From assembly GCA_951812955.1 (NCBI GenBank), contig OX638340.1:1856001-1920000 (forward strand): DNA of 64,000 bases. Reading direction: 5' to 3'. The notes beneath the pieces are model-generated. The model saw only the letters and a program-made list of their open reading frames with translations, was not told the origin of the DNA and made no database searches. Both the position numbers and the translations under genes were made by a program. Source of the DNA: an uncultured Gemmatimonadota bacterium. GTDB taxonomy: Bacteria > JAAXHH01. Below are positions 10,745 through 62,323 of the stretch, piece after piece (positions within the stretch are counted from its first letter, which is position 1; each line of letters starts with the position of its first letter).

Positions 10745-10917
10745 ATGGGCACTGCGGAGACGGAGACAAGCCCTTCCGGAAAACCATCTGGTCAAAGGCT
10801 CGGATGAGATTCAGATTGTTAACGTCGTTTCACTTGCATCAACGCAGAGCAGCATCGAAGGCGTAAAACGGATGTCGCAGGCATCTTTAAACAAAAACAT
10901 TCCGCAGGTATCTGAAA

Positions 10918-11367: not shown

Positions 11368-11390
11368 TACGCTCACAAAACTAGAATGGC

Positions 11391-11765: not shown

Positions 11766-11798
11766 AAAGTGCCTTCTTGGGATGGTAGGTAGTAAAGA

Positions 11799-12650: not shown

Positions 12651-12733
12651 CTCGGTGGAGTGCTATATCGCAGCACGGCGAAGCAATGTTTTTAGCATGG
12701 CGAGGCTGGTCGATATAAAAACAGCGATTCAGC

Positions 12734-45715: not shown

Positions 45716-45808
45716 ACCTGAACTTACGCGTTCCTTTCACGGTTCTTCCACTCTTCGTGGGCTAAACCTGAACTTACGCGTTCCTTTCACGGTTCTTCCA
45801 CTCTTCGT
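45716..45808. repeat. perfect 43-nt tandem direct repeat (period 50 nt)
   Basis: ACCTGAACTTACGCGTTCCTTTCACGGTTCTTCCACTCTTCGT occurs at 45716-45758 and 45766-45808. The second copy is the 3' end (last 11 codons plus stop) of the RraA-like gene. The first copy sits directly upstream of the hutU GTG start. Confidence 0.9.
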
Positions 45809-46448
45809 AGATGAAATCTGGGCTGGTGATCATGTCGAAATGGGACCGCTCCCAGGTCCTGATTTCCCCCGCCTTTCTCAGCGTGTCTGCCGCGATGTCG
45901 AGGGGGATCTTCACCACGCCGTCGACGTCGGCGAGCAACAGGTCGCCGGTCTGAACCAGCAACTGGCCGGCGACGAGGGGACGGCCGACTGCCCGCACGT
46001 TGAAGGGACCGTGGCCCGATACCGTGCCGATGCCCCATATGGGCAGTCCCGCCCCCCGGATTCCCTCGAGATCGCGCACGCAGCCTTCGACAACGGCGCC
46101 CACCACGCCGAGCTTTCGGTGGATATGCGCCATGCCGTCACCGAAAAGGGCGGCACGCTTTGGGCGGGTGTCGACGTCCTTCATCACCGCGATCTTGGGA
46201 CCCGGTGTCTCGTTGAGCACGTCGTAGTAGTCGGACCAGTTCATGTTGGGGGGAGTGGGGTCCAGCGGCGTGACCTCGGAAGTCACGGCATACCCGACCA
46301 CGGTGCCGAATTCGGGCGTCAGGTACTGTATCTCCGGTCCGGTGTAATCGTCATTGGAAACGCCCTGTACTTTTTCTACGGCGTTGTATACCGTGGCCGA
46401 GTCGAATTCGGCCAGTCCGGTCAATACGGCGTTGTCCACGCGGGTCAT
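45774..46448 (-). CDS. RraA-family protein (RraA / 4-hydroxy-4-methyl-2-oxoglutarate aldolase-like)
   Basis: 224 aa. RraA/DlpA-family pattern (…NAVLTGLAEFDSATVYNAVEK…GDLLLADVDGVVKIP…). Confidence 0.7.
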   Translation of the reverse strand: MTRVDNAVLTGLAEFDSATVYNAVEKVQGVSNDDYTGPEIQYLTPEFGTVVGYAVTSEVTPLDPTPPNMNWSDYYDVLNETPGPKIAVMKDVDTRPKRAALFGDGMAHIHRKLGVVGAVVEGCVRDLEGIRGAGLPIWGIGTVSGHGPFNVRAVGRPLVAGQLLVQTGDLLLADVDGVVKIPLDIAADTLRKAGEIRTWERSHFDMITSPDFIYEEWKNRERNA

Positions 46449-46678: not shown

Positions 46679-46702
46679 TGACACAGGCACGTACTTGTGT
46701 CA
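46679..46702. promoter_or_regulatory. inverted repeat TGACACA-N10-TGTGTCA overlapping a TTGACA -35-like hexamer in a divergent promoter region
   Basis: Perfect 7-bp arms with a 10-nt spacer, about 70 nt upstream of the 46770 start codon. Lies in the 321-nt divergent intergenic region between the RraA/hut operon and the DUF2911 gene. Confidence 0.35.
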
Positions 46703-46755
46703 TTTTCTCCTGGCAAAGCCAACTTCAATGGCGTGTCAGAACAAGAACCGTATTC

Positions 46756-46761
46756 AGGAGG
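46756..46761 (+). promoter_or_regulatory. Shine-Dalgarno AGGAGG
   Basis: AGGAGG lies 8 nt upstream of the ATG at 46770. Confidence 0.6.
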
Positions 46762-46769
46762 TTTTTTTT

Positions 46770-47330
46770 ATGCTTCGCATTACCCGTTTATTCAGTGTAC
46801 TGGCGCTTTCCGCGGCTTTCGTGGCCATGGGTAGCGGCGCCGTCGACGCTCAGACGACCATGCCTTCGGGCGAAGACAGTGCGGACATGGGCCGTGGCAT
46901 GGTGGAAGTATCGTTGATGGGCGGCAAGGTGTCCATCGACTACGGCCGTCCGGAAATGAAGGGCCGGGATATGCTGGCCATGGCGCCTGATGGATTCGTC
47001 TGGCGCTTCGGCAGCAACAAATCCACCACCTTCACTACGGAAGCCGATCTTATGTTCGGCGACCAGTCGCTGGCCAAGGGTTCCTACAGCGCGTGGATCA
47101 AGCACGTCGAAGGCGATTCCTGGACGCTCATTTTCAATAGCGAAGTGGGGATCTGGGGCGCACCCGGCGCCAGTCGGGAGAACGACGTGCTGGAAGTACC
47201 GCTGACCTACACCGTGGAAGATGAGATGGTCGAACGGCTCACCGTGAGACTCATGGTCATGGAAGACAAGGGTTTCGTGGGAGTCGGGTGGGGTACCCAC
47301 CGCCTGATTGTCAGTTTCTCGGCCAAGTAG
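46770..47330 (+). CDS. secreted DUF2911-like protein
   Basis: Signal peptide MLRITRLFSVLALSAAFVAMGSGAVDAQ. The mature region (…SIDYGRPEMKGRDM…VWRFGSNKSTTF…GSYSAWI…DSWTLIFN) matches my recollection of the DUF2911 pattern. The start was chosen at the ATG with a strong SD; the longest ORF begins at 46695. Confidence 0.5.
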   Translation: MLRITRLFSVLALSAAFVAMGSGAVDAQTTMPSGEDSADMGRGMVEVSLMGGKVSIDYGRPEMKGRDMLAMAPDGFVWRFGSNKSTTFTTEADLMFGDQSLAKGSYSAWIKHVEGDSWTLIFNSEVGIWGAPGASRENDVLEVPLTYTVEDEMVERLTVRLMVMEDKGFVGVGWGTHRLIVSFSAK

Positions 47331-47394: not shown

Positions 47395-48453
47395 TTACCA
47401 GTTTTCAGGATTCAAGCCGACGCGGATTCCCGCTTCTTCGATCTGCCGCCAGGTGGTATCGTCGATGCTGATCCCTTCACGGCGCCGTTCCTCCGCCAGC
47501 CTGAATTCCGGTTCTCCCGGAACGAGAATCTCTTCGAATCCCGGCGCGGTCCGGCTGGATTTCACGTGCCGGATCAATCCCTCGATCTCCTGGTAGTACC
47601 AGTCCAGGTCCGAGAAGAACGAAATATCGAAGACGGTGAAGAGCACGCCGTTGCTTTCCACGATCTGTTCGCCCTGCGCGCAACCCTGTCCGCTCAGCGC
47701 ACCGCCCAGGACCTCCACCATCAAACCCAGGCTGTAACCCTTATGGGCGACGATTCCGCCCATGGGCAGGATGGCGCCGTTGGGGGGCGGTCCCTTGATG
47801 ACCGTGGGATCCGTGGTGGAGTTGCCTTCGTGGTCGATCAACCATCCTTCCGGAACCCGCACCCCCTTGTTCGCGGCGACCCGGACCTTCCCTTCGGCGA
47901 CGACGGAGGTAGTCAGGTCCACCATGATGGGATCGGCGTCTCGACGGGGCGCCGAAAAGGCGATTGGGTTGGTGCTGATTCGTCCGTCGATACCGCCAAA
48001 AGGCGGAATCTGGCGTCCGAAGCGGCCCGCGTTGACGAAGGCCAGCCCGATCAGACCTTCCCGGGCCGCCATGAGGGGATAGGCGCCTACGCGGCCCACG
48101 TGGCTCGTACGCCGGAGCGTAACCGTGGCCGTGCCGTGCTTACGTGCTTTCTTCATGGCGAGCCGCATGGCGATGGTGCCGCCAACCTGGCCGAGGGCGC
48201 CGCCGTTGTCCACCAGGGCCGTGCAGGGACTTTCTCTCACGATGCCCACGTCGGCCCGGGCCTTGAATCGTCCCTCGTCCATAATGGCCTTGACGTACTC
48301 CGGTATCCGAATGGCGCCGTGGGAATCATGGCCGAAGAGATTCGAGTCCACGAGGTGGTCCACGACGCTGCGGGCATCGTCCTCGGTACAGCCGGCCGCT
48401 TCCAGCACCTCGCAACCGATGCGATGGAGTTTATCGGGGGTAATTACGGGCAT
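47395..48453 (-). CDS. Ldh_2-family oxidoreductase (malate/L-sulfolactate/Pyr2C-reductase-like)
   Basis: N-terminal VLEAAGCTEDDARSVVDHLVDSNLFGHDSHGAIRIPEYV is characteristic of the Ldh_2 family. Confidence 0.7.
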   Translation of the reverse strand: MPVITPDKLHRIGCEVLEAAGCTEDDARSVVDHLVDSNLFGHDSHGAIRIPEYVKAIMDEGRFKARADVGIVRESPCTALVDNGGALGQVGGTIAMRLAMKKARKHGTATVTLRRTSHVGRVGAYPLMAAREGLIGLAFVNAGRFGRQIPPFGGIDGRISTNPIAFSAPRRDADPIMVDLTTSVVAEGKVRVAANKGVRVPEGWLIDHEGNSTTDPTVIKGPPPNGAILPMGGIVAHKGYSLGLMVEVLGGALSGQGCAQGEQIVESNGVLFTVFDISFFSDLDWYYQEIEGLIRHVKSSRTAPGFEEILVPGEPEFRLAEERRREGISIDDTTWRQIEEAGIRVGLNPENW

Positions 48454-48535: not shown

Positions 48536-49570
48536 TCAGGTTCTGTATTTCTCCAGTTTCTTCTGTAATCCCGGCCGTTCGAGCACAGCCCTGTTCACCA
48601 CGTAGGGCGGCTCTTCGCCCCTGGAGACGGCCAGGGCCGCCTTGACGCAGTCGTGGCCGATATCACGAAACAGCTCATGGGTCCAGCACGACGCGTGGGG
48701 CGCCAGGATGACATTCGGGAGCGTGAGCAGCTCATCATCGGGATCGGGCGGCTCCCGTTCGAAGACATCGATGGCCGCGCCCTTGATCCAACCGTCCCGC
48801 AGGGCCCGGGTCAGCGCTTCCTGGTCGACGATCGCGCCACGGGCCGTGTTGACCAGGAAGGCGTCCTCCCTCATGAGGCGCAGTTCCCGCGCGCCGATCA
48901 GGTGCCGGGTGTGTTCGTTCAACGGGCAGTGGATGGTCACGAACGTGCTGCGCCGCAACAGGGTCTCACGGTCCACCAGTACAACGCCCAGTTGCGCGGC
49001 CTCTTCCGCGGACACCGCCGGATCGCTGATGAGGACTTCGGACGGCTCGAAGGGCGCCAGCATGCGCACCACCTCGCGGCCGATCATGCCCATGCCAATC
49101 AGGCCGACCACGCGGCCGCGGATCTCGCATCCCATGTGATCGAACCGGACACCCCAGTCGTCATTCCGTACGATGGCGTCCTTAATCGTCACCCGGTGGC
49201 AGAGTCCGAGCATCAGGGCCATCGTGGCGCTGGCCACGGGCCTCCGGGTGGCCTCCGGAGTGATGGTAATCATGACGTCCGCGTCTGTCGCCGCAGCGAG
49301 ATCGATCATGTCGTAGCCCACGCCGGTTCGCGCGATGAGCGCCAGGCGTTCGACGCCCGCGAAGCTTTCACGCGTGTAGGCCTGTCCCATGGATACGACC
49401 ACGTCGAAGTCTGAAAGCTGATCCGGGGTGACGGGACTCCGGTCTTCGGCAAGGTACGCGTGAGAGACTCCGGCCTTGTCCAGCAGGTCGACTCCGAAAT
49501 CGTCGAACACGACCCCGCCGTCTGGACCCAGCAGGTCGGCGACCAGGGCTACGCGGAATTCATCGGTCAT
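48536..49570 (-). CDS. D-isomer-specific 2-hydroxyacid dehydrogenase, NAD-binding
   Basis: GxGxxG Rossmann motif VVGLIGMGMIGREV. Catalytic R/E/H context (NTARGAIVD…APHAS). Confidence 0.8.
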   Translation of the reverse strand: MTDEFRVALVADLLGPDGGVVFDDFGVDLLDKAGVSHAYLAEDRSPVTPDQLSDFDVVVSMGQAYTRESFAGVERLALIARTGVGYDMIDLAAATDADVMITITPEATRRPVASATMALMLGLCHRVTIKDAIVRNDDWGVRFDHMGCEIRGRVVGLIGMGMIGREVVRMLAPFEPSEVLISDPAVSAEEAAQLGVVLVDRETLLRRSTFVTIHCPLNEHTRHLIGARELRLMREDAFLVNTARGAIVDQEALTRALRDGWIKGAAIDVFEREPPDPDDELLTLPNVILAPHASCWTHELFRDIGHDCVKAALAVSRGEEPPYVVNRAVLERPGLQKKLEKYRT

Positions 49571-49598: not shown

Positions 49599-51656
49599 TC
49601 AGAACAGGATCTGGGACGTCGACTTGGCGATCAAGACCAGGGAGACGGCCGCCATGCCGATCAGCCCAAGGCCGCACCCGTACCCGGCGAGGATCACCGG
49701 CGCGTAGGCGCGCCATCGTTTCTCTCCGTAGCGCCGTCCGAAATAGAACCTTCCCAGCATGGCGCCGATGAACGTGGGCAGCGTGTAGTGAATCCACGCG
49801 CCCGTGCCCAGTCCGGCCACCAGGCCGTAGAAAAGCAGCGGCGGCGCTTTGAGCAGGCTCAGCACCCCGTACAGCGCGAACGTGAACCCCATTCCGGCGC
49901 CGATATACTCCCAGCGGATCAGTTGCCCGATCACGTCTGAGCCGCCCGGCAGGGTAGACTTGATCCAGATCGTCTCCATCGTGGCCTGCAGCGGCCACAT
50001 CTTCTCGACGAAAGGATAGGCCGCGGACGGTATGGGCGCCAGTTTCCAGATCAGGGCGTAGAACACGAAACTGAATACGATAAGCAGTATCAGGCTCAAT
50101 ATATAGAGTTTGACCAGGCTTGGAAATCGCGTTCGGGTGAGTTCCAGCTGCCGGAAAGTCGCCACGACGCCGCTGTGATCGAAGAGGGGAACCGGGGCGA
50201 ACCAGATCGCCACCCCCTTGTAGCCCGACAGGTAGAAGGACCCCTCTCTGGCGTAGGGGAAGGATGACCCGTAGGGAGAGCCCGTCAAACCTATCATGCG
50301 GGCGCCGATGTAGGAGAAAAAAGGCGTCCACAGAAACCCGAACACCACGGAGATCCACACGGGAAACGCCGGTTCAAGGTAGTAGACCAGGGCAATAAAG
50401 CACAGGGTCGAAACCACCCAGAGCGCGATGGGGATGGGCAGCCTGAAATCACCCCTTTCCGGCGGCGGTTTGCGGGGGCCCTGCCCGCCGGACGCCCCAT
50501 CCGGGTCTCTCCTCAACGCGCGGGCGAAGGCGACCAGGCCGATCAGGCCGATGACCAGCGAAGTGCCGATGGAAGAAAAACTCAGCCAGAAGTCGATGGT
50601 GTTGTTGATGGAGGTGGGTATGGTGCTCATCCCCGGCGTCCAACTGTGCAACAGGCCGAAGTGGTAGAGGAGCGGATTGGCAATAAAGGTGATGACGAAG
50701 GAACTGATGAAGGTGCCGACCACGATCCAGAAGGGCAGGACGAATCCCACCAGGAGGGTGGCCATGTCCGTTCCGATGCCGATGGGCGACGCGGGCAGCA
50801 CGTCCCGGAACCGCGGCGTGAAGTCCGCGAAGGGAATGGGGAAGACCTCCACACCCTTGGTCAGCACCACGCCGGAAATGGTGGGGACGACGACATATAA
50901 TATGCCCCAGCCCAGTCCGATCATGGCGCCGACGGTGAACATTCGCCATCGCCAGGTCTCTTCCCCCGCCGACGATTCGGCCAGGGCGGTAGCGCCGGCC
51001 GCCTGCACGGGCGCCAGGGGGAAGGGCAGGCGTTCGGTGTCGGCCGTAATCCGGAAGAGCACGTATCCCAGGGAGAGCGCGTTGACCAGGCCGAGGATGG
51101 ACACGAGGACGGCCAGGAGAATGGGCTCCAGCCACTCCATGGAGAAGAGGGTCCGGGTGATCAACGAATCGGCACCCCGGGGCGGGGAAACCCACTGTGG
51201 AAGAAGCTGGGCCAGGCCGTCCGCCTGGGGAGACTGGATCAGGTACTGGAACCAGATCATCTTGGCGAAGGGCGCGCCGTGCACCGACGACCCGGCCGCC
51301 ATACCGCTGGCGCCCAGTCCCGTGGCCGCAAGCCCGGCGGCAAGCCAGTAGAGGATGATGGCTTCCTGAGGCTTGAGCTTTATAAACAGGCGCTTGCCGA
51401 TCTCGATGAACATGATGATGGTGACCCATTCCGCGGCGCCCGCGAAACTCTTGCCCGTCACCAGTTCCAGGTAGATCGCGCCGGGGAGCATGACCAGCCC
51501 CACGAAGAAGGCGGCCCAGATGATGCGGCTGCTGAACCCGTCCTCGTAGGGCAGGTTGTCCGGAACGATCTGCCACCGGTCATCCTGTTCGGCTCCGGTG
51601 GGAATCGCTTCCCGATCCCGCTGTTCGTGCTGCTCGCGTCTGTTTTCGTCGCTCAT
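49599..51656 (-). CDS. large polytopic membrane protein (685 aa), tentatively OPT-superfamily-like transporter
   Basis: Roughly 14-16 predicted hydrophobic helices. The N-terminal block SRIIWAAFFVGLVMLPGAIYLELVTGKSFAGAAEWVTIIMF weakly resembles the OPT-family N-terminus. ATG start. The family call is low-confidence. Confidence 0.45.
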   Translation of the reverse strand: MSDENRREQHEQRDREAIPTGAEQDDRWQIVPDNLPYEDGFSSRIIWAAFFVGLVMLPGAIYLELVTGKSFAGAAEWVTIIMFIEIGKRLFIKLKPQEAIILYWLAAGLAATGLGASGMAAGSSVHGAPFAKMIWFQYLIQSPQADGLAQLLPQWVSPPRGADSLITRTLFSMEWLEPILLAVLVSILGLVNALSLGYVLFRITADTERLPFPLAPVQAAGATALAESSAGEETWRWRMFTVGAMIGLGWGILYVVVPTISGVVLTKGVEVFPIPFADFTPRFRDVLPASPIGIGTDMATLLVGFVLPFWIVVGTFISSFVITFIANPLLYHFGLLHSWTPGMSTIPTSINNTIDFWLSFSSIGTSLVIGLIGLVAFARALRRDPDGASGGQGPRKPPPERGDFRLPIPIALWVVSTLCFIALVYYLEPAFPVWISVVFGFLWTPFFSYIGARMIGLTGSPYGSSFPYAREGSFYLSGYKGVAIWFAPVPLFDHSGVVATFRQLELTRTRFPSLVKLYILSLILLIVFSFVFYALIWKLAPIPSAAYPFVEKMWPLQATMETIWIKSTLPGGSDVIGQLIRWEYIGAGMGFTFALYGVLSLLKAPPLLFYGLVAGLGTGAWIHYTLPTFIGAMLGRFYFGRRYGEKRWRAYAPVILAGYGCGLGLIGMAAVSLVLIAKSTSQILF

Positions 51657-51756
51657 GGATTACACTCGGCCCCGGCCCGGTACCTACCTATTCGCTCTTC
51701 CAATCTTCACTCCCCGATCACTGCTTATAATGCGCCATACGCGCCCATTCTCCCGC

Positions 51757-52914
51757 CTACTCCGCCCTGATATAGTTGCCCGCCTTGTCCCAGTCCGGCC
51801 GCGTCAGGCCGTTCAGGTCCCATACCACCTGTCCGGCGCGCACGGTCAGCAGGCATCGCAGCCGCCGGTCGCCGCGCATGCGGGCGAGGCCCGAATCGAC
51901 GAAGCCGAATTCCCCGTATTCCAGTTCCAGCACGGCGACGTCCGCCTCCGCGCCGATGCTCAGGGTACCCAGTTCCGGCCGCCGTATGGTCCGGGCGGGA
52001 TTGCGCGTGGAGCGCATGACCACGTCCTCCAGGGTCATCCCCATGTTCAGGCATTTCGACATGGTCGTGATCATGCTCGCGTTCGGCATAAGGGCACTGT
52101 ACTTGTGGAAATCCGTGCTGACCGTATCCGGCAGGAAGCCCTGCTCGATGGCCGGCACGGCGATGCGGAACCAGAAGCTGCCGCCGCCGTGGCCCAGATC
52201 GAACAGGATGCCCTTGTCCCGCGCCTCCCGGACGTAGTCGTTCACCCTGCCGCGATGGTCCAGCAAGGGGATGTGCTGTGCGTACAGGTGGGTGTGTATG
52301 TCGCCCGGACTCAGTTTCTTCAGCAGCAGGTCCCGGTAGCTGCGGTTCGGCTTCGGTGCGAAATCGATCATGGCAATGGCGCCGCTCCGCCGGGCCGCCT
52401 CGACGGCGCCGTCGACCGCCTCCCACCCCGGTCCGTTGAAATGGGCGGTCTTGGATCCCACGACGTGTTCCGGATACCTGCTGATCATGTCCGCGCAGGG
52501 CACGGGGTCCATCTCCGACACGTCCTGTTCCACGGCGCCTTCCATACCGGCGCCCACGATGTTGATCAGGGCCAGCACCCGGGTTATGGACTCGGCGATG
52601 ACCGTGTCCTTGAAGTCTTCGAATTTCTTCCACCCGGCGCCCCCTGTATCGAGCACCGTGGTCACGCCGTTGGGGAGCACGTGGGCATCGGGGAACACCC
52701 ATCCCCGGTAGCCGCCATAGGCGTGCATGTGGATGTCGATCAGGCCAGGCGTGACGTAATGGCCGTGGACGCGGGCGACCTGTCTCCCGTGCTCCGCCGG
52801 GATGTCGTGTCCAACCGCCGCAATCAGTCCGTCGTTGACGGCGACGTCCCGGCTATCGTTGATGCCGTTTTGGGGATCGATGACCTGTCCGCCCTTGATT
52901 ATGAGATCGTACAT
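51757..52914 (-). CDS. amidohydrolase-superfamily protein (dihydroorotase/D-aminoacylase-like)
   Basis: N-terminal IIKGGQVIDP…VAVNDGLIAAVG…YVTPGLIDIHMHAYGG is the classic metal-dependent amidohydrolase opening. Confidence 0.7.
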   Translation of the reverse strand: MYDLIIKGGQVIDPQNGINDSRDVAVNDGLIAAVGHDIPAEHGRQVARVHGHYVTPGLIDIHMHAYGGYRGWVFPDAHVLPNGVTTVLDTGGAGWKKFEDFKDTVIAESITRVLALINIVGAGMEGAVEQDVSEMDPVPCADMISRYPEHVVGSKTAHFNGPGWEAVDGAVEAARRSGAIAMIDFAPKPNRSYRDLLLKKLSPGDIHTHLYAQHIPLLDHRGRVNDYVREARDKGILFDLGHGGGSFWFRIAVPAIEQGFLPDTVSTDFHKYSALMPNASMITTMSKCLNMGMTLEDVVMRSTRNPARTIRRPELGTLSIGAEADVAVLELEYGEFGFVDSGLARMRGDRRLRCLLTVRAGQVVWDLNGLTRPDWDKAGNYIRAE

Positions 52915-52924
52915 CGCTGCTCCT

Positions 52925-55900
52925 TCAGGTCAATTGCGGCGCTTCCGCGGGCGCTCGTTCCTCGACTTTCCGGTACTGGTCCTTGATGGACTCGGAAAGG
53001 GTACGCCACACGAGGAAACGTTTCCGCAGCACGGTGAAGAACCGGCGGTTGATGGTCTGCCACTGCGCAAGGTCCCCGCTGCGCCGGCGGATTGCGATCA
53101 TGATCCGGTACAGGCTTTCACCCGGTACGGGCTCCAGTTCCAGCGCCACGTCCTGGCTGATGGCGAGATCGTAGGGCGCGAGCCATACCGTCGCAGATAC
53201 ACGGTAGCCTTCTATAGGCCGGGCCGGTACCACGTCATGCGCCGTTCCCTCCGCGACGAAATCCTCGGCCGAACTGTCCTCGTGGGTCTGGAAAATGTGT
53301 GCCAGGTATCCCGCCAGCGGATAGGCCTCCGGGATGGTGACGGTAAAGGGAAACTCGAAGCGCCAGTCGTCGCCGTCGGGCGTTGGTGGCGCCCAGCGCC
53401 GGGTCACGTCCTCCACCGTCATGTCCGCGGCCTTTTTGGCCGGGTAGAGGGTGGACAGGAACACGACGACCATGACGACCACCGTCGCGTATACGGTCGA
53501 CAACGAGGAATAGTTCAGCGACAGGCCGCCCAGCAGGTCCCACTGCGACAGGCCCATGGTGATGATCTGGCCGGTGAGGTACCCGAACACAGCGCCTAGG
53601 GTGGCGAATACGGCCGCTTCGGCGATGAACAGCGCGGCAACGTGGTTCGGCGCCAGGCCCACGGCGCTGTATACGCCGATCTCCCGGAACCGTTCGAACA
53701 CGGCGCCCATCATGGTGTTCAGAACCAGGAACGCCGCGATGAGCACCGGGATGATCAGGTTGGCCAGGCCCGAGACCGAAGTGGCGCCAAGGGAGCTGTA
53801 GACCTTCACCTCGTCTTCCGTTCCGACAAACACGGCCAGGAGGACCCGTGACATGAAGGCCTCCACGGAATCGCGGAGTTGATCGCCATCCGCGAACCCC
53901 GTGATCGCCACGGACCGCGTGGATCCGTTCAGGTCGAGGGTCTGGCGGTAGGGCAGGACCAGCACGTTGCGGGATGGCAGGTGTTCGGAGGCCTGGATCG
54001 TTGACATGAATACCTCCACGTCCATTTCGGTCAACGAACGGGTCATGGAAAAACTGGCGGGCATGATGCTTTCGTCGTCCATGTCCCGGTAGGCGTCCAG
54101 GCCATCGGATTCGAGCAGTCCGATCACGGTATAGCGGCCGCCCAGGATCTCCACGACCGCCGTACCTACGTCCTCGGGCTCCACGTCCAGCCTTTCGGCC
54201 AGTTCCGTGGGCAGCAGACACACCGCCCTTTCGTCAGGACCGAACCATCGCCCGCCCGGTACCAGGTAGCGGTCCAGCCCGGAAATGGCCGGTTCGTCGG
54301 CGTGAAGTCCGAGCAGGGACTGTACCGTGGTGGAGGTTCCCCGGCCCGGCGCCCGCAGGTCTATGTAGGGGCTGGTGAGATCCTCGGGCTCGTACCACGA
54401 CCTGGGCACGACCTCGGCCTGCGCTTTGAAGGCGTTTTCCACGTAGGGCAGGAAAGAAGAGGGCAGCGAGTGCCACGACAGGTTGCGCATGAGGACGCCG
54501 TCGTACGGGGGGGCGTTCTCGCGGTCCAGCGTATAGAACTGGATGCCGGTCCTGAAGGAGGTGAAGGAAAGCACGGTAAAGGTCAGCAGGGTCAGCGTCA
54601 CCGCCGTCAGAGCCGTGCGCAGCTTCCGCTTGCGAAGGTTCGAAATCCCGAGCGATATGGCCACCGCCGTGGCGCTCAGCCGGCCGATGTCCGCCTCGTG
54701 AAGGCCGGCCGCCGACCGGGTCAGGTTCTTCATCTCCGTGTCGAACCGCGTGACGATCATGGTAATGATAATCAGCGCCATGGCCAGGATGATGAAGGCG
54801 AGGAAAACCATGTAGGGCGTCAGGCTGAGTTGAAAGGCCGGATGCACGTTCTGCAGCAACAAAAAGACCGCCGCGAAGATCACGCCCACCGCGAGCAGCC
54901 GCTTGCGAATGTCCGGGAACCCGAAGAACAGTCGCTCGAGGAAGAAGCAGAAGGGTACCAGCAGCATGAAGTAGAAAACGATGCCGTCCACCGTGTCGTC
55001 CGCGGCGTACCGTACATCGGGATAGGCGCGGGCCTCGTAGCCCCACGCTTCCCTCGACCGGGCCACGAAGGCATCGTAGCGGCGGTCTTCCAGGGCTTCC
55101 CGCGCCGCCCGAAGCGCCTGCGTGCTTTCTTCATGCAACTCGGCTGCCCGGGCGTTCGTCACGCCGTGGTCCTCCAGTTTCATCAGCCGCGCCCTGTTGA
55201 GCGACCACAGGTCCAGGGCGCTCTGGTAGAAGGGATAGAGAATCGGCCCCCGGTCCGCCGTGAAGCCTTGTCCCTGTGCCAGGGCCATGACGTCGTCGGA
55301 GATGCTTTCCGGCGGATCGTCGAGCCAGGACTCCGGCGTATTGGTCAGCAGGTACTTGACGCCCCGGGGACCCGCGCTCATGAACATCTTGACGCGGTCC
55401 TCGGGCTTTGCGAAGACCACCGCGGCGTTGGTCATCCAGTTGCCGAAGAAACTCTGGTCTTCCACGAAGGCCGCCCCGTACTTTCGCAGTGGGCTGTTGT
55501 CCCGTCCGAGCACGGTCAGGTTGTCGAGAGCGACGAAGACGCCGGGATCGACGATATCGAAGAGGTTGATCTCCTCGCACGGAAAGAGGACCTGTATGGT
55601 ATTGTTCACCTTGGACGAATTCGGCACCGCGAGAGGGAAGGTGGCGTCGCCCTCCTCCCCCAGGTCCGGCGCGTACACGACCCTGCCTGTGTCGTCCAGG
55701 CCATAGCTGCGAACCTCGGTCGGGCCCTTGGAGTCGCGGACCATGGAAAAACGGAAGTAACCCATCGAATCCGCGTGGGTGACCATGAACCCCCGCACGC
55801 CGCTGTGGCTCTGGTAGCCCGGCTCGTAGACGACCAGGGCATCGGATACCGGGGTGTTGGGCTTGAAGAAATCCACGGTGCGGTCGAACTCGAGGACCCG

Positions 55901-57511
55901 GCCCTCGATGTCGCGGCCGTCGTCTTTCAGCCGAATGGACTCGTCCACGTCGAAGGCCTCGGGGTCCGACAGCATGGCCGGCAGCAAGGTGCCGATGGTC
56001 CTGATCTGCCGGACCAGGTTGGGGAAATCGACGTGCTCGACCCGGTCGACAGGCGTATCGATCAGCAGCCTGTTGTCGTTCACCGTGGAGAAGGTCATGC
56101 CATGCAGCCCCGCGAGCGTGACCATCTCATGATCGAAGGCTGGACCCGCGGGCATGTAGCTTTCCTGGGACCTGAGCGAAGGCGTCAGCGTATTGAGGTA
56201 GGCCGTCCGGCTGTCCTCCCGATCGTACACGCCGGCCTTGCGTGCGTAATTCATGTACCGGTCCGCATAGGGTTCGTACAGTATATCCAGATTCGAGGCG
56301 AAGAAGATGTAATCGCCGTAGCTGAACAGCCCGACCTGGTCCATCCGGCTGGTCAGGTCCAGACCCAGGAAAAGCGTGAAGGGGATCCGGTCCGCCTCAG
56401 GTATGCGTTCCAGGAAAAAATCGTCCGTCCGATAGTGGCGGTCCAAGAAGTCGTTTATGCCCTGCATGCCGTGGAAATGGGCGGACGTGGCCAGAAACAG
56501 CACGGTGTATCCGGGAGGATGGGCGCGGAACACGTCCAGCAGTTCCAGCATCGCCGCGATGCCGCCCGCGCTCTCGGCGCCCGGGGCCTGTCCGGGTACG
56601 ACCGACATGGCGTCATAGAATGCCGACAACACGACGACGCGGTCCTTCCACTTTTCTGTCCCGTCGCCGCCGGGAATCGGTTCGTCCCGACCCTGTATCC
56701 ACCCCATGACGTTCCAGGTTTCAGCCCGTTCCCACGACATGCGACCCCGGATCGTCACGTCGATGTTGCCGGGTCCTTCGGACCGGGCGGCCTGCAGCAC
56801 CTTCGCCGCGTGGGGATCGGGAATCCAGAACCGCGGGACGTCTGCGGGCACGTCCAGGATCTTGCGCTGGGCCTGGTTGTTGGTCACCGCGCCCGGACCG
56901 CTGTCGTAGAACAGGATAGCCTGCGCGCCCAGCATCCGCGCGTTGAGATACTGGTCTCGCCCGTCGAAATCGATCAGGACGATGCTTCCCTCGATCTCTT
57001 TCCCGTTGAAGGCCTGGAATTCGCCCCGGCGTCCATAGTGCAGTGGGCCTTTGATGCCGTTGGGAAAGGAATTCAGCCGGACCAGATTGGGCCAGAACTG
57101 GTACACCGGGATTTCGGTTTCAACTGAATCGTGCAGGGTAAGCGTGAACCCGTGGTCGACCGGCGAGGAAACGGTGAAGGTATCGATGGTTACTTCGGAC
57201 AGTCCCCCTGCATGGAACGCGTCGACCACGTACTCCATGGCCGCGCGGTTCCCCGGGTAGCCCACGACGCGCGACGGATGTGCGCTCATCGACCGGACGT
57301 GGGCCTCGACGCCCTCCACGGTCACGATTTCGGAGACTTCTTCCCAGGTCACTGGAGCTTCTTCGAGGGGCCTGGGAGTCACGTCATCGGGAAGCGAGAC
57401 GAACCTCAGGATCACGTGCTCCGTGACCCAGGCCGGACCGGCCACGGCCACGGCGAGGAAGAGCAGGACGCCCACGACAAGAAAGAAAGTTCCGAAAATC
57501 CGAGAATACAC
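52925..57511 (-). CDS. 1528-aa fusion membrane protein: N-terminal TM + PA domain + M28-peptidase-like domain, fused to a MacB/FtsX-type permease module, with a ~190-aa C-terminal tail
   Basis: PA-domain pattern GSIVLIDFDGR…AQAILFYD. M28-like blocks VVVLSAFYDAMSVVPGQAPGAESAGGIAAMLELL and LFLATSAHFHGMQGINDF. Three TM helices around residues 835-900. An FtsX N-terminal TM (NLRKRKLRTALTAVTLTLLTFTVLSF), a ~300-aa periplasmic domain, and an FtsX C-terminal 3-TM bundle (…REIGVYSAVGLAPNHVAALFIAEAAVFATLGAVFGYLTG…). GTG start, 1 nt after the upstream stop. Confidence 0.65.
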   Translation of the reverse strand: MYSRIFGTFFLVVGVLLFLAVAVAGPAWVTEHVILRFVSLPDDVTPRPLEEAPVTWEEVSEIVTVEGVEAHVRSMSAHPSRVVGYPGNRAAMEYVVDAFHAGGLSEVTIDTFTVSSPVDHGFTLTLHDSVETEIPVYQFWPNLVRLNSFPNGIKGPLHYGRRGEFQAFNGKEIEGSIVLIDFDGRDQYLNARMLGAQAILFYDSGPGAVTNNQAQRKILDVPADVPRFWIPDPHAAKVLQAARSEGPGNIDVTIRGRMSWERAETWNVMGWIQGRDEPIPGGDGTEKWKDRVVVLSAFYDAMSVVPGQAPGAESAGGIAAMLELLDVFRAHPPGYTVLFLATSAHFHGMQGINDFLDRHYRTDDFFLERIPEADRIPFTLFLGLDLTSRMDQVGLFSYGDYIFFASNLDILYEPYADRYMNYARKAGVYDREDSRTAYLNTLTPSLRSQESYMPAGPAFDHEMVTLAGLHGMTFSTVNDNRLLIDTPVDRVEHVDFPNLVRQIRTIGTLLPAMLSDPEAFDVDESIRLKDDGRDIEGRVLEFDRTVDFFKPNTPVSDALVVYEPGYQSHSGVRGFMVTHADSMGYFRFSMVRDSKGPTEVRSYGLDDTGRVVYAPDLGEEGDATFPLAVPNSSKVNNTIQVLFPCEEINLFDIVDPGVFVALDNLTVLGRDNSPLRKYGAAFVEDQSFFGNWMTNAAVVFAKPEDRVKMFMSAGPRGVKYLLTNTPESWLDDPPESISDDVMALAQGQGFTADRGPILYPFYQSALDLWSLNRARLMKLEDHGVTNARAAELHEESTQALRAAREALEDRRYDAFVARSREAWGYEARAYPDVRYAADDTVDGIVFYFMLLVPFCFFLERLFFGFPDIRKRLLAVGVIFAAVFLLLQNVHPAFQLSLTPYMVFLAFIILAMALIIITMIVTRFDTEMKNLTRSAAGLHEADIGRLSATAVAISLGISNLRKRKLRTALTAVTLTLLTFTVLSFTSFRTGIQFYTLDRENAPPYDGVLMRNLSWHSLPSSFLPYVENAFKAQAEVVPRSWYEPEDLTSPYIDLRAPGRGTSTTVQSLLGLHADEPAISGLDRYLVPGGRWFGPDERAVCLLPTELAERLDVEPEDVGTAVVEILGGRYTVIGLLESDGLDAYRDMDDESIMPASFSMTRSLTEMDVEVFMSTIQASEHLPSRNVLVLPYRQTLDLNGSTRSVAITGFADGDQLRDSVEAFMSRVLLAVFVGTEDEVKVYSSLGATSVSGLANLIIPVLIAAFLVLNTMMGAVFERFREIGVYSAVGLAPNHVAALFIAEAAVFATLGAVFGYLTGQIITMGLSQWDLLGGLSLNYSSLSTVYATVVVMVVVFLSTLYPAKKAADMTVEDVTRRWAPPTPDGDDWRFEFPFTVTIPEAYPLAGYLAHIFQTHEDSSAEDFVAEGTAHDVVPARPIEGYRVSATVWLAPYDLAISQDVALELEPVPGESLYRIMIAIRRRSGDLAQWQTINRRFFTVLRKRFLVWRTLSESIKDQYRKVEERAPAEAPQLT

Positions 57512-57512
57512 G

Positions 57513-59507
57513 TCAGTCTATCCCGTAGATATGATGCCCCGCGTGGGGGAACCATATGTAATCAACGAACATGGAGATGACCACGCCGGTAGCCACACCG
57601 AAGATAAGGCCCAGGAAGAAGGGCTGACCCTTTCGGTACAGCTCGATACCGCCGACCCACATCATGATGCTCTTGATGACCCAGCAAACGAACATGGACG
57701 ACACGATAGCGCGTGCGGGCCACGAGTAGGAAAGGAAGAAACCGAGGGGATGCAGCGGCCAGCCGGGCAGCCGGGCCCTCAGGGTCATGAGCAGGAACAT
57801 GAGCCAGCCGCCCACCATGAAGAACATGAGGCGGGCCGTGTCCGGTCCGAAGGGATCCCGCATCTTGGTGAGCGTTTCGTTGTAGGGGATGGTCGATCCG
57901 ATCCTTCCGAACCACCATCCGTTGGTGAACTGCCGCGTGCCCTGGTCGAATCCCAGGTAGATCGTCCAGATCAGCGCGATCACCACGCCGATCACCGCGG
58001 CGGACAGGACTGTCCAGCCCAGTCCACGGTGCCAGCGCGCACCGATCTCTGAAAGCTTGGCCACCTGCATGAAGGCGGGCATGAAGGTCGATTTGATCTC
58101 GCTGACGGGTCCATAGGTCTGGGCCATCGCCGTCATGGTGGACATGGACAGGTTCGCCGACCCGACCGAGTAGAATACGAGCACCTGGGCGATCATGGGC
58201 GAACGCACGTAGGGCAGCCCGGCTTCGGCGATGATGCGGGAGACGCCGATATAGATGACGAAGACGCCCGCGAGGAGGAACACGGCAATGGGCACGCTCA
58301 TGCCCAGCTGGTTCAGCCACACGATCCCGTAGACGAACCCGCCGAGAAAGCCGAAGACGGCGACCCGGTAGGGCAGCATCTCATCGGAGTCGTCCAGGTC
58401 CGATCTGCGGCCGAACGCATGGGAGAACACCGCGCGGATGTGAAACCTGGCCCGCCACAGCCCCCAGGCTACGAACACGATGAAGGCGCCCATGTTCTGC
58501 CAGTCCAGCATGGGGTGGATTGACGTGTAGTTGTCCCTGCCAGGTATGTCGTAACCGATCCGTTGTGCGATGCCTACCTGGATGATCCCGATCATGTAGA
58601 ACACCCAGAACCCGGCCAGCACGTCCAGGTTGACGAAGTAGGAAATACCGAGGATGGCTGGCCGGAAGTTGATCTCCAGCGGAGGGAATCCTTCGCCGAA
58701 GACAATGGGCGGCGCCGACCCGAAATAGGGAAACTGGGGCACGACCGGTGTGAAGTATCCGATAATGTTGTACATCATCACGCAGAAAGGGATGGAAAAG
58801 CCGATCCAGAAACGTTTCTCGGTCATAAATTCCGGGATGCGTCCCGACGATTCCATGCCTCGCGTCAAGGCGAGGGGGATCTGCATCATGGGGAATACCA
58901 GTTTCTCGTGTTCGACCCACTGTCTTCTGAGGATCACCACGAGACACAGCCCCATGAAGATGATCGGTACGATGAAGGTCAGCCACCAGAACAGGGGAAT
59001 GCCCCACACGCTCCAGGGTATGGACTCACCGGGCGGGATACCGTCGACGAACCAGGTCAGCGCATTGCCCTGGTTGGTGACGTTCGCCCAGGGTTTCAAA
59101 TAGGGATAAAAGTATTCTGCCCACTGGTTCTCGGGCGTCGCCAGGAGATTCGGCGCCATGAGCGTGGAGATAAACGGGGCGCCCATGCCGTTGGTCGACA
59201 GCCCGGAAGCCGCCATGCCCATGGCCAGGGGGATGACGAACTCGTGGGACGTCAGGGCCCAGTCTTTCTTCCACCGGGCCAGTATCACGTTGAACAGGAT
59301 GAGATACGCAAAGGCCAGGAACAACGCACCGATGTGAAGATGGTCCGCGCCGAGTTGAGACGAGGCCATGGTGTACTGAAAATAGGGGACGATCAGGGAA
59401 ATCAGGACGACGCTCGTCAGGCCCAGGAGGATGGATCTCGGCGTAATGATCCGGGTCGCGGTCGTCGGGCCGGCGGAAGAGGATACACTTTGCTGGGCTG
59501 AGGCCAT
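57513..59507 (-). CDS. large polytopic membrane protein (~665 aa), tentatively OPT-superfamily-like transporter
   Basis: Many hydrophobic helices and similar size and architecture to the 49599..51656 product. The first ATG is at 59507 (MASAQQS…). The longest ORF (TTG at 59615) adds an F/Y-rich 36 aa encoded by AT-rich DNA, so I judge the extension non-coding. Confidence 0.45.
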   Translation of the reverse strand: MASAQQSVSSSAGPTTATRIITPRSILLGLTSVVLISLIVPYFQYTMASSQLGADHLHIGALFLAFAYLILFNVILARWKKDWALTSHEFVIPLAMGMAASGLSTNGMGAPFISTLMAPNLLATPENQWAEYFYPYLKPWANVTNQGNALTWFVDGIPPGESIPWSVWGIPLFWWLTFIVPIIFMGLCLVVILRRQWVEHEKLVFPMMQIPLALTRGMESSGRIPEFMTEKRFWIGFSIPFCVMMYNIIGYFTPVVPQFPYFGSAPPIVFGEGFPPLEINFRPAILGISYFVNLDVLAGFWVFYMIGIIQVGIAQRIGYDIPGRDNYTSIHPMLDWQNMGAFIVFVAWGLWRARFHIRAVFSHAFGRRSDLDDSDEMLPYRVAVFGFLGGFVYGIVWLNQLGMSVPIAVFLLAGVFVIYIGVSRIIAEAGLPYVRSPMIAQVLVFYSVGSANLSMSTMTAMAQTYGPVSEIKSTFMPAFMQVAKLSEIGARWHRGLGWTVLSAAVIGVVIALIWTIYLGFDQGTRQFTNGWWFGRIGSTIPYNETLTKMRDPFGPDTARLMFFMVGGWLMFLLMTLRARLPGWPLHPLGFFLSYSWPARAIVSSMFVCWVIKSIMMWVGGIELYRKGQPFFLGLIFGVATGVVISMFVDYIWFPHAGHHIYGID

Positions 59508-59739
59508 GGAAAGGGCCGGATTGTGATACTTGCGGTGACTGAAATACGGTAATGAATCTAGTCTGCGGGTCCAGAATATGTAAAATGGCAGACGGTATAA
59601 GTCAAAGAAAAACAAAGTTCCATGAGGTCCTGAGCCACCATCGGCCAGACCTTTTCGTTGTTGACACGATTCCGGTTTGCGGGGATATTTCCATACCTTG
59701 ATGTACCCGTTTCATACGAGGGATTTACAGTGAAGGCCG

Positions 59740-62270
59740 AAACGAGAGCCGCCATAGACCGCTTGCTGAACAGGTACATCGCCTTCATCTGCCGCCATCC
59801 GGCGAAGATCCTCCTGGGTGCGCTGCTGACCGCATTGCTCTCCGCGCATTTCGCATCCAGGCTTCAGCTTAAAACCGACTTCGTGGAACTGCTCCCGGAA
59901 GGCTACCGGAGCGTCGACGACATTCACCGGATCACGGAGCGCGTCGGCGGCATCGGCAACCTGACCGTCGTCATTGAAACGGAAGACCTGACTTCGGCAC
60001 AGCGGTTCGCCGACGACCTCGCCGGCAGGATCCATTCCGATCTTCCCGAGGGGTATATCCGGTATATCGAGTACCGGGTGGACGAGGAGAAGCGCTTCTA
60101 CGAAGACCACAAATATCTGTATGCGGATCTGGAGGACCTGGAAGAGATCCAGAACCGCCTGAGCCGACAGATCCTGAAGACGAAACTGGAGCAGAACCCC
60201 CTCTTCGTTTCCGAGGAAGACCTCGGGCTGGAAACGGAAGACGAACCGTTTACCTTGAGCGATCTGGAAGAGAAGTACGAAAAGAAAGCGGGGGAGAAGC
60301 TGGACAAGTGGGTCGACGGCTATTTCACGGGGCACGACGAGCAGGGGCAGTTTCTCGTCATGGTCCTGAAACCCTTCGGTTCGTCGACCGGCGTTTCCTT
60401 TTCGCGGGACCTGTGCGAACGGGTACTCGCCATCGTAGAAGGGCTTGACCCCCCGTCATACCATCCATCGCTGAAAGTGGGCCTCACCGGCAAGTACCGC
60501 CTGATCCTGGACCAGTACTCTTCCGTCCAGCGGGAGATCTTCTCGTCCGCCGCCTTCACACTGACCCTGGTGGCCCTGGTCATCTTCCTCTACTTCCGCA
60601 CCATCGTCCCGGTCATCAACATCACGCTGGTCGTGGTCGTCGGCATACTCTGGACGTTCTGCCTGACCTATTTCCGCATTGGCTACCTCAACATGCAGAC
60701 CGCCTTCCTGGGCGCCATCATCATTGGGAACGGCATCAACTACGGCCTGATCCTCATGGCCAGGTACAAGGAAGAAAGGCTGCAGGGAGCGGACGCCCTT
60801 GAAGGCGTGCAGATCGCCTTTCGGAATACGATTACCGCGACGGTCACAAGCGCGGCGTCCACGGGCCTCGCATACGGCACGCTCATGATCACTGATTTTC
60901 GCGGCTTCAATCACTTCGGGTTCATCGGCGGCCTCGGCATGCTGCTGTGTTGGATTTCCACCTTTTCTATCATGCCGGCGCTGCTGATGCTGTGGGACCG
61001 CACCCGTTTCGGGCGGAAGACCTGGACGCGGAAGGTCTCGCGGGGCGGGTCGCTGACCCATCTCGCCAACCTGGTGCAAAAGGCGCCGCAGGCCGTGGTG
61101 GGCACGAGTATCTCCCTGGTCGTGCTGGGTACCGCCCTCCTGGTGTGGTGGCTTCCGAATTCCTTCGAATACGACTTCTCGAAACTGCGAAACGAACCGC
61201 GGGGCGATACTTACGAGCGGATCCTCAACCACCGCGTAAACGCCCTGTTCGGTATATCGCAGTCTCCCGCGGTTATCCTCGCGGACCGCCTGGACCAGGT
61301 CCCGGGCATCCGGCGCGCCGTGCTGGACAAGAAAGAAGCGGAGAAAGAGGGTCCCAAACCGACCATCGACCGGGTGCGAACCATCTTCGATCTGCTGCCG
61401 GAGGACCAGGAAGACAAGATCGACGTGCTCTGGGACATAGATTACATGCTGGACACCAATCCGCCCGACGAACTTGGCATACCGCCCGACCAGCTCGAAA
61501 GGATCAACGCGTTCCGAGAGAACCTGAGCCTGGATGAAATCACCGTTGATGACCTGCCCCAGGCGCTCACGCGTCCCTTCGAGGAGCGGGACGGGACAGT
61601 GGGCAGGCTCGTCTACGTCTACCCGAGGTCGGACGCCGGACTCTGGAACGGCAGGAACCTGATCCGGTTCGCGGAAGTCGTCCGTTCCAACCGCCTGCCA
61701 GACGATGAAGTCATCTATTCCTCCGGTGAGGCCGTGGTATTCGCCGACATGCTGAAGGCCGTGGACCGCGACGGCCCCATTGCCACGGTCGCCTGCTTCG
61801 TGGGCGTTATCGCGCTACTCTTACTGGCATTCCGCAGCGTCCACGCGTCGGTCGTGATCCTGGCTTCCCTGCTGGGCGGCATGCTGGTCATGGGCGGCGT
61901 CATCGCCGTCTTCGACATCAAGGTGAATTTCTTCAACTTCATCGTCATACCCACTACGCTGGGGATCGGCGTGGACTACAGCGTGAACCTGTATCAACGC
62001 TACCGCCTTGACGGACGCGGTTCCATACGTAATATGGTACAGCATACAGGCGCGGCCCTGGTCATGTGTTCGTCCACGACGCTGATCGGTTACACTTCTC
62101 TCATGCTCACGTCCAACCGGGGCCTGCATTCCTTCGGCATCATGGCCAACGTGGGAGAGATCGCCACGCTGGCAACGGCCCTGGTCGCGCTGCCCGCCTA
62201 TCTGCTTATTATGGAAAAGCGGATGAGGAACAAGGCGCCTGGAACGCGGAGTCCGGTTCACGCCGCTTGA
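59740..62270 (+). CDS. RND-superfamily exporter, MMPL/HpnN-like (two large periplasmic loops, 12 TM)
   Basis: Layout is N-terminal TM (ILLGALLTALLSAHF), a periplasmic domain, a TM bundle, a second periplasmic domain and a second TM bundle, ~840 aa. GTG start at 59740 preceded by GAGGGA (59728-59733) at 6-nt spacing. The ORF track's TTG at 59658 would leave only 42 nt of divergent intergenic space. Confidence 0.7.
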
Positions 62271-62323
62271 GACCGACTTCTACAGCCCTGCCGTTCGGAA
62301 ATGAGTCGAACAAGGCCGGTTAC

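Follow-up and report, generated by a model that had tools for sequence, protein, structure and literature searches.

The 64,000-nucleotide stretch of contig OX638340.1 analysed here (hereafter the window), from an uncultured Gemmatimonadota bacterium, carries a minus-strand gene cluster that encodes a conserved membrane module. The module comprises one or two OPT-fold transporters of the class with 16 transmembrane (TM) helices, belonging to two mutually remote families, and a giant inner-membrane fusion protein of 1528 residues (denoted as FUS). The widely conserved unit, found in Gemmatimonadota and related phyla, is FUS together with one or two OPT-like genes. With a probability of about 0.5, this unit is a proton-driven uptake system, in which FUS would serve as the membrane-anchored periplasmic receptor or processing partner of OPT-like importers, and to which clade-specific catabolic genes are attached. 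A first-pass annotation of the same DNA had viewed the cluster as a peptide or amide scavenging or processing unit; this interpretation is supported in part, and the scavenging role itself is one that we infer for the cluster.

Modelled and probable OPT folds of the two membrane proteins

The protein encoded by the first gene of the cluster matches the Pfam families DUF6785 (PF20581; 369.3 bits, E = 3.5e-110, cut-off 25) and DUF6784 (PF20580; 78.6 bits, E = 4.4e-22, cut-off 26.4). Neither its single sequence nor its family profile found a match in the PDB by sequence. An AlphaFold model, computed from a 37-sequence alignment, reached a pLDDT of 88.9 and a pTM of 0.90, and a Foldseek comparison of this model with the PDB revealed barley Yellow Stripe 1 (HvYS1; entries 7wst and 7wsr) as the sole significant fold match, with E values of 2.8e-9 and 2.2e-8 and TM-scores of 0.63–0.70. 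The match to 7wst_A has a probability of 1.00 and TM-scores of 0.63/0.69; the next-best match after HvYS1 has an E value of 0.02 and a TM-score of 0.10. By this modelled structure, the DUF6785/6784 protein is established at the fold level as a divergent OPT-fold transporter, although it is only 13–14% identical to HvYS1.

The second membrane protein, encoded by the fourth gene, has no match in Pfam or NCBIfam, DUF6785 and DUF6784 included. It has more than 1342 homologues, several of which are named "peptide transporter" in the NCBI annotation. A comparison of the two families with hhalign (probability 94.9%, E = 4e-8) aligned them essentially end to end, with columns 22–649 of the second family placed on columns 10–639 of the DUF6785/6784 family over 560 collinear columns at 18% identity. 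Furthermore, P0235, one of the 37 members of the second family and 54% identical to its window representative, exceeds the gathering threshold of the OPT profile PF03169 (28.7 versus 25.8 bits), its residues 186–650 covering profile positions 132–619 of 623. Through its homology with the DUF6785/6784 family, the second protein can be taken as a probable divergent OPT-fold transporter. A sequence link to a solved OPT structure was sought and not found: the single sequences and both family profiles fail to reach HvYS1 in the PDB, and neither window protein matches PF03169 at E = 0.1.

These results bear out the OPT-superfamily assignment, which had been offered as a pattern-level guess, and neither protein falls into an unrelated, well-characterised family with no transport role. 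The window proteins (about 660–690 residues) resemble the OPT/YSL family (PF03169, TC 2.A.67), represented by HvYS1, in their polytopic nature and similar size, and the DUF6785/6784 protein shares its fold. By the hhalign identity, the two window families are as remote from each other as from OPT. To our knowledge, no OPT member is paired with an FtsX-type protein. Literature searches on DUF6785 and on FtsX, M28 and Latescibacteria found nothing relevant.

Architecture of the fusion protein

The window FUS has no exact database record, and a 98%-identical protein served as a stand-in. Pfam places PA, Peptidase_M28, MacB_PCD and FtsX domains in the one polypeptide, so the M28::FtsX fusion noticed in the first pass is genuine. 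Peptidase_M28 (PF04389) scores 30.2 bits against a cut-off of 21.3, and PA scores 21.9 bits, slightly below its cut-off of 23.9. A hydropathy scan predicts eight TM helices, at residues 5–23, ~840–862, ~868–890, 902–920, 968–986, 1246–1264, 1291–1309 and ~1335–1358. With the topology oriented by setting the MacB periplasmic core domain outside, the predicted layout is a cytoplasmic N-terminus, TM1, a periplasmic ectodomain of ~815 residues, TM2–4, a basic cytoplasmic loop, TM5, the periplasmic MacB_PCD, TM6–8 (FtsX) and a cytoplasmic tail of ~165 residues.

The permease module has the arrangement that defines type VII ATP-binding cassette (ABC) permeases, namely an FtsX C-terminal domain and a MacB-type core domain between the first and second TM helices of the module. 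FUS differs from the "mechanotransmission" systems of this type (MacB, LolCDE, FtsEX, YtrF and YbbP) in having no fused or linked ATPase, four extra TM helices, the large periplasmic ectodomain N-terminal to the module and a private cytoplasmic C-terminal domain; it is instead genetically coupled to genes of the secondary-transporter type. In its fold, the C-terminal domain is like Bet v 1 and KA1 and unlike an NTPase; it recurs in about 1560 clusters formed at 50% identity.

Two segments of FUS, residues 501–850 and 1366–1528, have no Pfam match even at E = 10. On this basis a helical dimerisation domain of the TfR/GCPII type was rejected for the former and a known domain for the latter. The idea that the N-terminal half (TM1, ectodomain, TM2–4) is a degenerate second FtsX repeat was likewise rejected, since hhalign gives a probability below 1% for residues 825–935 against 1235–1370 and only the topology is alike. 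Nor do we claim the short forms of ~600 residues, seemingly limited to FtsX and the C-terminal domain, since the single one checked (P0412) proved to be truncated at the end of its contig. Two relatives (P0361 and P0363) are 2930–3053 residues long and have Big_5 Ig-like domains added on the N-terminal side of the M28-like domain. Because of these additional domains, the ectodomain appears modular and expandable.

A degenerate M28-like active site

The FUS family profile matches PA-M28 aminopeptidases in the PDB, including the Aneurinibacillus enzyme 2ek8 (5e-17) and Bacillus subtilis YwaD (2e-10), in both cases across the PA and M28 parts, as well as nicalin (2e-6) and the Aeromonas aminopeptidase. 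With the single sequence as the query, the best PDB sequence match of the ectodomain is nicalin. FUS therefore shares the PA plus M28 layout of the aminopeptidases 2ek8 and YwaD (6hc6) but differs from them and from nicalin in its eight TM helices and its fused FtsX module.

When FUS is aligned to 2ek8, YwaD and the Aeromonas aminopeptidase, the place of the enzymes' Glu-Glu pair, which holds the catalytic and a ligand residue, is taken by His345-Phe346. The first zinc-binding His, within the HxD motif, corresponds to position 298, which is Tyr in 16, Phe in 11 and His in 9 of the 36 family members compared. The Asp-Asp pair of the enzymes, the second residue of which we take to be the bridging Asp, is aligned to Glu313-Ser314. 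The fourth and fifth zinc-ligand positions were located from motifs rather than from a printed alignment, and so placed, the last His ligand is Ser in 28 members. Active PA-M28 enzymes keep His, Asp, Glu-Glu, Asp and His, whereas FUS presents Tyr/Phe/His, Glu313-Ser314 on the Asp-Asp pair, His-Phe on Glu-Glu, Asp, and Ser/His. The canonical set (the catalytic Glu and the ligands His, Asp, Glu, Asp and His) is preserved in none of the 36 members. In contrast, Asp300, His345, Asp385 and Glu462 are invariant, and Glu313 occurs in 34 members.

Because the canonical set is absent from every member, we read the domain as a pseudo-peptidase. Judged by these residues, it is very probably not a conventional M28 aminopeptidase and probably acts as a binding domain rather than a working enzyme. 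The periplasmic peptidase-like domain described in the first pass is present, but it lacks the canonical catalytic Glu and most zinc ligands in all 36 family members compared. The same loss of catalytic residues characterises nicalin, and nicastrin and the transferrin receptor are also inactive M28-like receptors.

Conservation of the module

More than 360 full-length FUS homologues of about 1450–1900 residues were found, in metagenome-assembled genomes labelled Gemmatimonadota, Latescibacterota, Zixibacteria, Handelsmanbacteria and Planctomycetota, and at least 592 FUS loci occur among the GTDB species representatives (one genome per species). For a census of gene order, hidden Markov models built from our own alignments were applied to the six-frame open reading frames (ORFs) of 83 loci from species-level genomes, 81 of which hold a near-complete FUS gene with flanks of 10 kb or less. 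An OPT-like gene of either or both families lies within 10 kb of FUS in 77 of the 81, and in the other four the flanks are short and cut by contig ends. In 43 loci the OPT-like gene is on the same strand within 250 nt of FUS, and 38 loci contain both families. The spacer between FUS and the OPT-like gene is 1 nt in the window and 2–20 nt in many loci. From the other direction, two second-family transporter genes picked arbitrarily both adjoin a FUS gene. FUS and the OPT-like genes are linked as tightly as is usual for subunits.

This link is maintained through at least six gene orders. With D for DUF6785/6784, F for FUS, P for the second family and a for the amidohydrolase, these are D-F-a-P, F-P, F-D-P, D-F-D, P..D-F and divergent D<>F. 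A tandem D-F-D-F arrangement is present in an 8-Mb genome (L003), and several chromosomes each carry two FUS loci with differing gene orders. The window's full order, in which D-F-a-P is followed by two dehydrogenase genes, occurs only in its own clade (L001 and L004–L011, at least 67% identity). Gene order is accordingly conserved among relatives in a layered manner: the four-gene order picked out in the first pass is confined to close relatives, whereas FUS with one or two OPT-like genes is widely kept.

DUF6785/6784 genes are also found without FUS, as convergent pairs within catabolic clusters containing sulfatase, SDR, sugar-isomerase-like and GFO/IDH/MocA genes. The accessory genes at FUS loci differ by clade; the window's clade has a cog3964-type amidohydrolase and two dehydrogenases. 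A SurA-like rotamase accompanies an FGE-sulfatase and ExbB/ExbD at one FUS locus, and other loci encode secreted F5/8-C plus FlgD_Ig/CHU_C proteins, a Laminin_G_3 lipoprotein, a metallophosphoesterase or DUF255.

Some loci show further features. In L087 (positions 5848–7418 and 11994–12944), genes for ExbB, two ExbD proteins and an FGE-sulfatase form one run with a second-family transporter and FUS; a 628-residue gene product without Pfam matches, encoded after FUS at the same locus, may represent a third OPT-like lineage. One FUS clade (L048, L058, L061–L064, L067, L070–L076, L079 and L080) has a conserved block upstream of FUS. It encodes three paralogous secreted proteins of ~600 residues (F5/8 type C with a FlgD_Ig/CHU_C C-terminal domain), an outer-membrane-like protein of 876 residues that has no Pfam match and ends in ...GWSF, a SurA_N-like protein of 552 residues and a lipoprotein of 264 residues. 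This block suggests a larger envelope-spanning apparatus in that clade.

Absence of a linked ABC ATPase

No ORF with both a Walker A motif and the ABC signature (LSGGQ) exists in the entire window, and in none of the 83 related loci does an ABC ATPase gene adjoin FUS. When the related loci and the window are taken together, 14 of the 84 sequences contain such an ORF within 10 kb, none of them nearer than about 4 kb. In L002, the one such locus with annotated genes, the ATPase is part of a BPD_transp_1 importer, and in L026 and L040 the ATPase ORF lies beside a separate FtsX-type ORF. Neither the Pfam scans nor the fold of the C-terminal domain revealed a nucleotide-binding domain within FUS. 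The coupling-helix motif ERxREIG, which contacts the ATPase in MacB, LolC and FtsX, is invariant in FUS.

Two further FtsX-type permeases are encoded at the start of the window, at 25–2142 and 2701–5106 on the plus strand. Both are ADOP-like, with duplicated MacB_PCD/FtsX modules, and their best NCBIfam match is TIGR03434 (311 and 300 bits, under the cut-off); the first gene enters from the window edge. With these two genes and no ABC ATPase in the window, the genome carries several "orphan" FtsX-type permeases, and FtsX proteins without an ATPase are recurrent in this lineage rather than unique to FUS. The ADOP "duplicated orphan permeases" (TIGR03434) resemble FUS in being FtsX/MacB_PCD proteins and, typically, in not being encoded next to an ATPase gene. 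They differ in their tandem FtsX-module duplication, their length of about 800 residues and the absence of an M28 domain; FUS contains just one FtsX module, reaches no more than 21.7 bits on TIGR03434 (cut-off 622.3) with the last FtsX module alone covered, and has an N-terminal TM bundle without detectable similarity to its FtsX TM helices.

Gene organization and neighbouring genes

The positions of the genes and of the FUS domains are given in Table 1. ORF coordinates reproduce exactly the four genes at 49599–59507 and their successive spacings of 1, 10 and 100 nt reported in the first pass. The same-strand run extends past 49599 to include two dehydrogenase genes, at gaps of 28 and 82 nt, and therefore consists of six co-directional genes rather than four. 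The ORF of the first gene is open back to a TTG at 59615, a start that would give 700 residues. The ATG at 59507 is the likelier start, because homologues have 650–676 residues and a promoter-like site lies at 59584–59555. An Rfam search of 46.5–60.5 kb gave zero matches, and terminator-like sites are no more frequent than in shuffled sequence.

Table 1. Genes of the minus-strand run and domains of FUS, with positions in the window
Feature	Position	Strand	Description	Basis
DUF6785+DUF6784 transporter (OPT fold by model), first gene of the run	57513–59507	minus	664 aa from ATG	Pfam, AlphaFold, fold match
Fusion protein (FUS)	52925–57511	minus	1528 aa, GTG start, 1 nt past the preceding stop	Pfam
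Amidohydrolase/deacetylase-family metallohydrolase, cytoplasmic	51757–52914	minus	385 aa, 10-nt gap	NCBIfam
Second OPT-like membrane transporter (probable)	49599–51656	minus	685 aa, 100-nt gap	hhalign, OPT match of a relative
D-isomer-specific 2-hydroxyacid dehydrogenase	48536–49570	minus	344 aa, 28-nt gap	Pfam 2-Hacid_dh_C, E = 9.6e-55
Ldh_2-family (malate/L-lactate/ureidoglycolate-type) dehydrogenase, last gene of the run	47395–48453	minus	352 aa, 82-nt gap	Pfam Ldh_2, E = 1.5e-105
FUS periplasmic ectodomain, residues ~24–839	54995–57442	minus	PA/M28-like unit at ~56–500, then ~330 residues without a Pfam match	
FUS MacB/FtsX-type (type VII ABC) permease module, residues ~950–1365	53417–54664	minus	TM helix, periplasmic core domain, three TM helices	
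FUS family-specific cytoplasmic C-terminal domain, residues 1366–1528	52928–53416	minus	β-α-β-β-β-β-α topology	

The amidohydrolase assignment made in the first pass agrees with a match to NF006689 over residues 1–365 of 385, at 367.2 bits and slightly under the cut-off of 371. The protein also matches TIGR03583 (EF_0837; 188 bits), contains an HxH motif (IDIHMH) and has the PDB relatives 8je0 ("amidase"), 2ogj and 2ics (126 bits to the last). These matches place it close to the cog3964 amidohydrolases, which include EF0837, STM4445 and BCE_5003. Members of cog3964 reportedly deacetylate acetyl-(R)-α-hydroxy or amino carboxylates in vitro. Literature searches on 8JE0 and EF0837/STM4445 gave nothing useful; the reference list of PMC4987910 includes Ornelas et al. 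(2013, Biochemistry 52:228) for this family. Among the loci surveyed, the amidohydrolase gene is confined to L001 and L004–L011. The census therefore rules it out as a core part of the unit, to which the first-pass annotation had assigned it; it is instead clade-specific cargo.

The D-2-hydroxyacid dehydrogenase reaches no NCBIfam equivalog and is, within the same survey, likewise confined to the window's clade. The Ldh_2-family dehydrogenase matches NF007504 with 299 bits (cut-off 336), and its gene has the same position in L001 and L004–L011. Ldh_2 genes also lie 2–7 kb downstream of FUS, on the opposite strand, in L061, L062, L064, L070, L072, L073 and L076, a clade without the amidohydrolase. 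From this placement, Ldh_2 dehydrogenases may be tied to the module in a looser way.

Beyond the run, a plus-strand DUF2911 gene (46695–47330) separates the cluster from minus-strand histidine-utilisation genes at 44066–46448, which encode urocanase and an RraA-like protein; in the 98%-identical locus L001 (21059–24587), these are followed by an aromatic/histidine ammonia-lyase gene. Divergent from the cluster, at 59658–63958 on the plus strand, are genes for an MMPL/RND-type transporter and the bacillithiol protein BshC. In L001 (1–7782), the region past these two genes encodes a PIG-L (BshB-like) protein, a GT4 glycosyltransferase, a rhodanese and a second DUF6785/6784 protein, the gene of which adjoins no FUS. 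At the far end of the window, the region ~2000–12000 has a GC content of 0.50–0.53, compared with about 0.57–0.65 elsewhere. It encodes Lactamase_B_2, an APH phosphotransferase, a GldB-like lipoprotein, a serine beta-lactamase-family protein, an SDR and a phosphoribosyltransferase, and this block may be of different origin. An ankyrin-repeat protein (Pfam Ank_2/Ank_3) is encoded at 11799–12650 on the plus strand. It would suit a sponge symbiont as the source of the window, as would the closest related loci, which belong to Gemmatimonadota MAGs with seemingly sponge-derived isolate names (L007, SB0665_bin_8; L012, APA_bin_41, 98% identity).

Discussion

Each component of the module is of a known kind: the OPT fold, the type VII ABC permease, the M28/PA ectodomain and the amidohydrolase. 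The features that appear undescribed are the fusion of a pseudo-M28 ectodomain to FtsX, its private C-terminal domain, the lack of a linked ATPase and the near-obligate pairing with OPT-fold transporters.

In the proposed uptake unit, the OPT-like proteins would import small organic compounds of nitrogen or carbon in a proton-coupled manner, by analogy with characterised transporters of this fold, and the substrates in the window's clade would probably be of the peptide, amide or acyl type. The assignment as importers follows from the OPT/YSL precedent, the catabolic neighbourhoods and the presumably co-transcribed cytoplasmic hydrolase and dehydrogenases, and the ExbB/ExbD, SurA-like and secreted binding proteins of other FUS loci also speak for it. 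FUS would act as a membrane-tethered periplasmic receptor, gate or non-canonical processing partner of the transporters. It may capture the substrate through its pseudo-peptidase and MacB-like domains and pass it to the transporter, or it may regulate the transporter; it is probably not an ATP-driven pump. The clade-variable attached genes would decide the metabolic fate of the cargo. A speculative route for the window's clade, based on family-level annotations and on the cog3964 literature, would begin with the import of an acylated or peptide-like compound; the amidohydrolase would then deacylate it, and the two dehydrogenases would oxidise the hydroxy or amino acid set free.

Several observations weigh against this uptake model. 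The functional reading as a whole is drawn from gene context. DUF6785/6784 genes exist without FUS, so FUS is not obligatory for that family, and the second transporter has no OPT match of its own in Pfam, with neither family profile leading to HvYS1 by sequence. Confidence in the modelled FUS structure is low across its TM part. The conserved residues Asp300, Glu313, His345, Asp385 and Glu462 could form a remodelled metal site, with which some catalysis would be possible. The invariant ERxREIG motif keeps an unlinked ATPase partner alive as an alternative.

A bolder version, which we consider possible but rather unlikely, has FUS bound physically to the OPT-like proteins in a novel kind of complex, where a MacB-type mechanotransmission module that has lost its ABC ATPase is coupled to a proton-driven OPT-fold transporter. 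Energy for the periplasmic pseudo-peptidase and MacB domains might then come from the conformational cycle of the secondary transporter. In the reverse direction, a ligand bound by the periplasmic domains might gate the transporter, and the C-terminal α+β domain would take the docking site of the ATPase.

The main rival to the uptake model, which we regard as similarly doubtful, is that FUS is an ordinary type VII permease of the MacB/Lol/FtsEX kind. Its ATPase would be encoded elsewhere, and its ATP-driven periplasmic domains would expel, extract or activate something in a pathway shared with the OPT-like genes. The canonical FtsX and MacB_PCD modules and the invariant coupling-helix motif are what such a permease would contain, and the solved relatives of the FtsX module (MacB, LolCDE and FtsEX) all work with an ABC ATPase. 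The two ADOP-like permeases of the window have no linked ATPase either, so partners encoded at a distance may be usual in this lineage. Against this, six gene orders have failed to bring an ATPase gene next to FUS at any of the 83 loci or anywhere into the 64-kb window, an OPT-like gene is almost always adjacent instead, and an invariant private cytoplasmic domain sits where ATPase docking would be expected.

The remaining alternatives are less likely. The module might export or handle envelope material, the OPT-like proteins moving a peptide, lipid-linked or chelator-type compound outward and FUS passing it on in the manner of MacB or LolC. Such a role, which we judge improbable, would fit the secreted proteins with type-IX-secretion-like C-terminal domains, the SurA-like chaperone and the large outer-membrane-like protein at some FUS loci, as well as the resemblance of the FUS C-terminal domain to the lipid-binding folds START, Bet v 1 and KA1; MacB-type proteins themselves act on periplasmic or outer-leaflet substrates and not in import. 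However, the characterised OPT and YSL members are importers, DUF6785/6784 genes lie in catabolic clusters, and the enzymes of the window are a cytoplasmic hydrolase and dehydrogenases, followed by hut genes.

Slightly less probable still is the notion that FUS serves the OPT-like proteins as a sensor or as a factor dedicated to their assembly or quality control. Its model would be nicalin and nicastrin, inactive M28-like receptor or scaffold subunits of membrane complexes, and nicalin, itself devoid of catalytic residues as FUS is, is the best single-sequence PDB match of the ectodomain and is matched by the family profile too. The adjacency of FUS to both arbitrarily chosen second-family transporters would also suit a dedicated factor. 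Nevertheless, active PA-M28 aminopeptidases match the FUS profile far better than nicalin does (5e-17 versus 2e-6), DUF6785/6784 proteins manage without FUS, and the Pfam scans of FUS found no regulatory output domain. Finally, it is very improbable that the genes lack any functional coupling and are mere neighbours or share an operon for convenience: the amidohydrolase and dehydrogenases do indeed fail to persist beyond the window's clade, but the pairing of FUS with an OPT-like gene recurs in nearly every locus across phyla, gene orders and paralogous copies, often with spacers of a few nucleotides.

The module is common, with two or more copies often present in one genome, and it sits in abundant, poorly studied environmental and sponge-associated phyla for which we found no published work on it. 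The present analysis provides a first functional handle on DUF6785/DUF6784, with an OPT fold and a likely importer role in catabolic loci, and also on a large "peptide transporter" family for which Pfam has no model. A further question is what a MacB/FtsX module does without an ATPase, which applies equally to the ADOP orphan permeases. If FUS serves OPT-fold transporters as a tethered receptor or as a mechanotransducer coupled to the proton motive force, this would add a new principle to the ways in which nutrients are captured across the inner membrane. If FUS and the OPT-like proteins form a complex, this would be a hybrid of type VII ABC and secondary transporters, the MacB-type module being partnered by a secondary transporter instead of an ATPase. 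A membrane-tethered, "binding-protein-dependent" OPT system would then be widespread in Gemmatimonadota, Latescibacterota and Zixibacteria.

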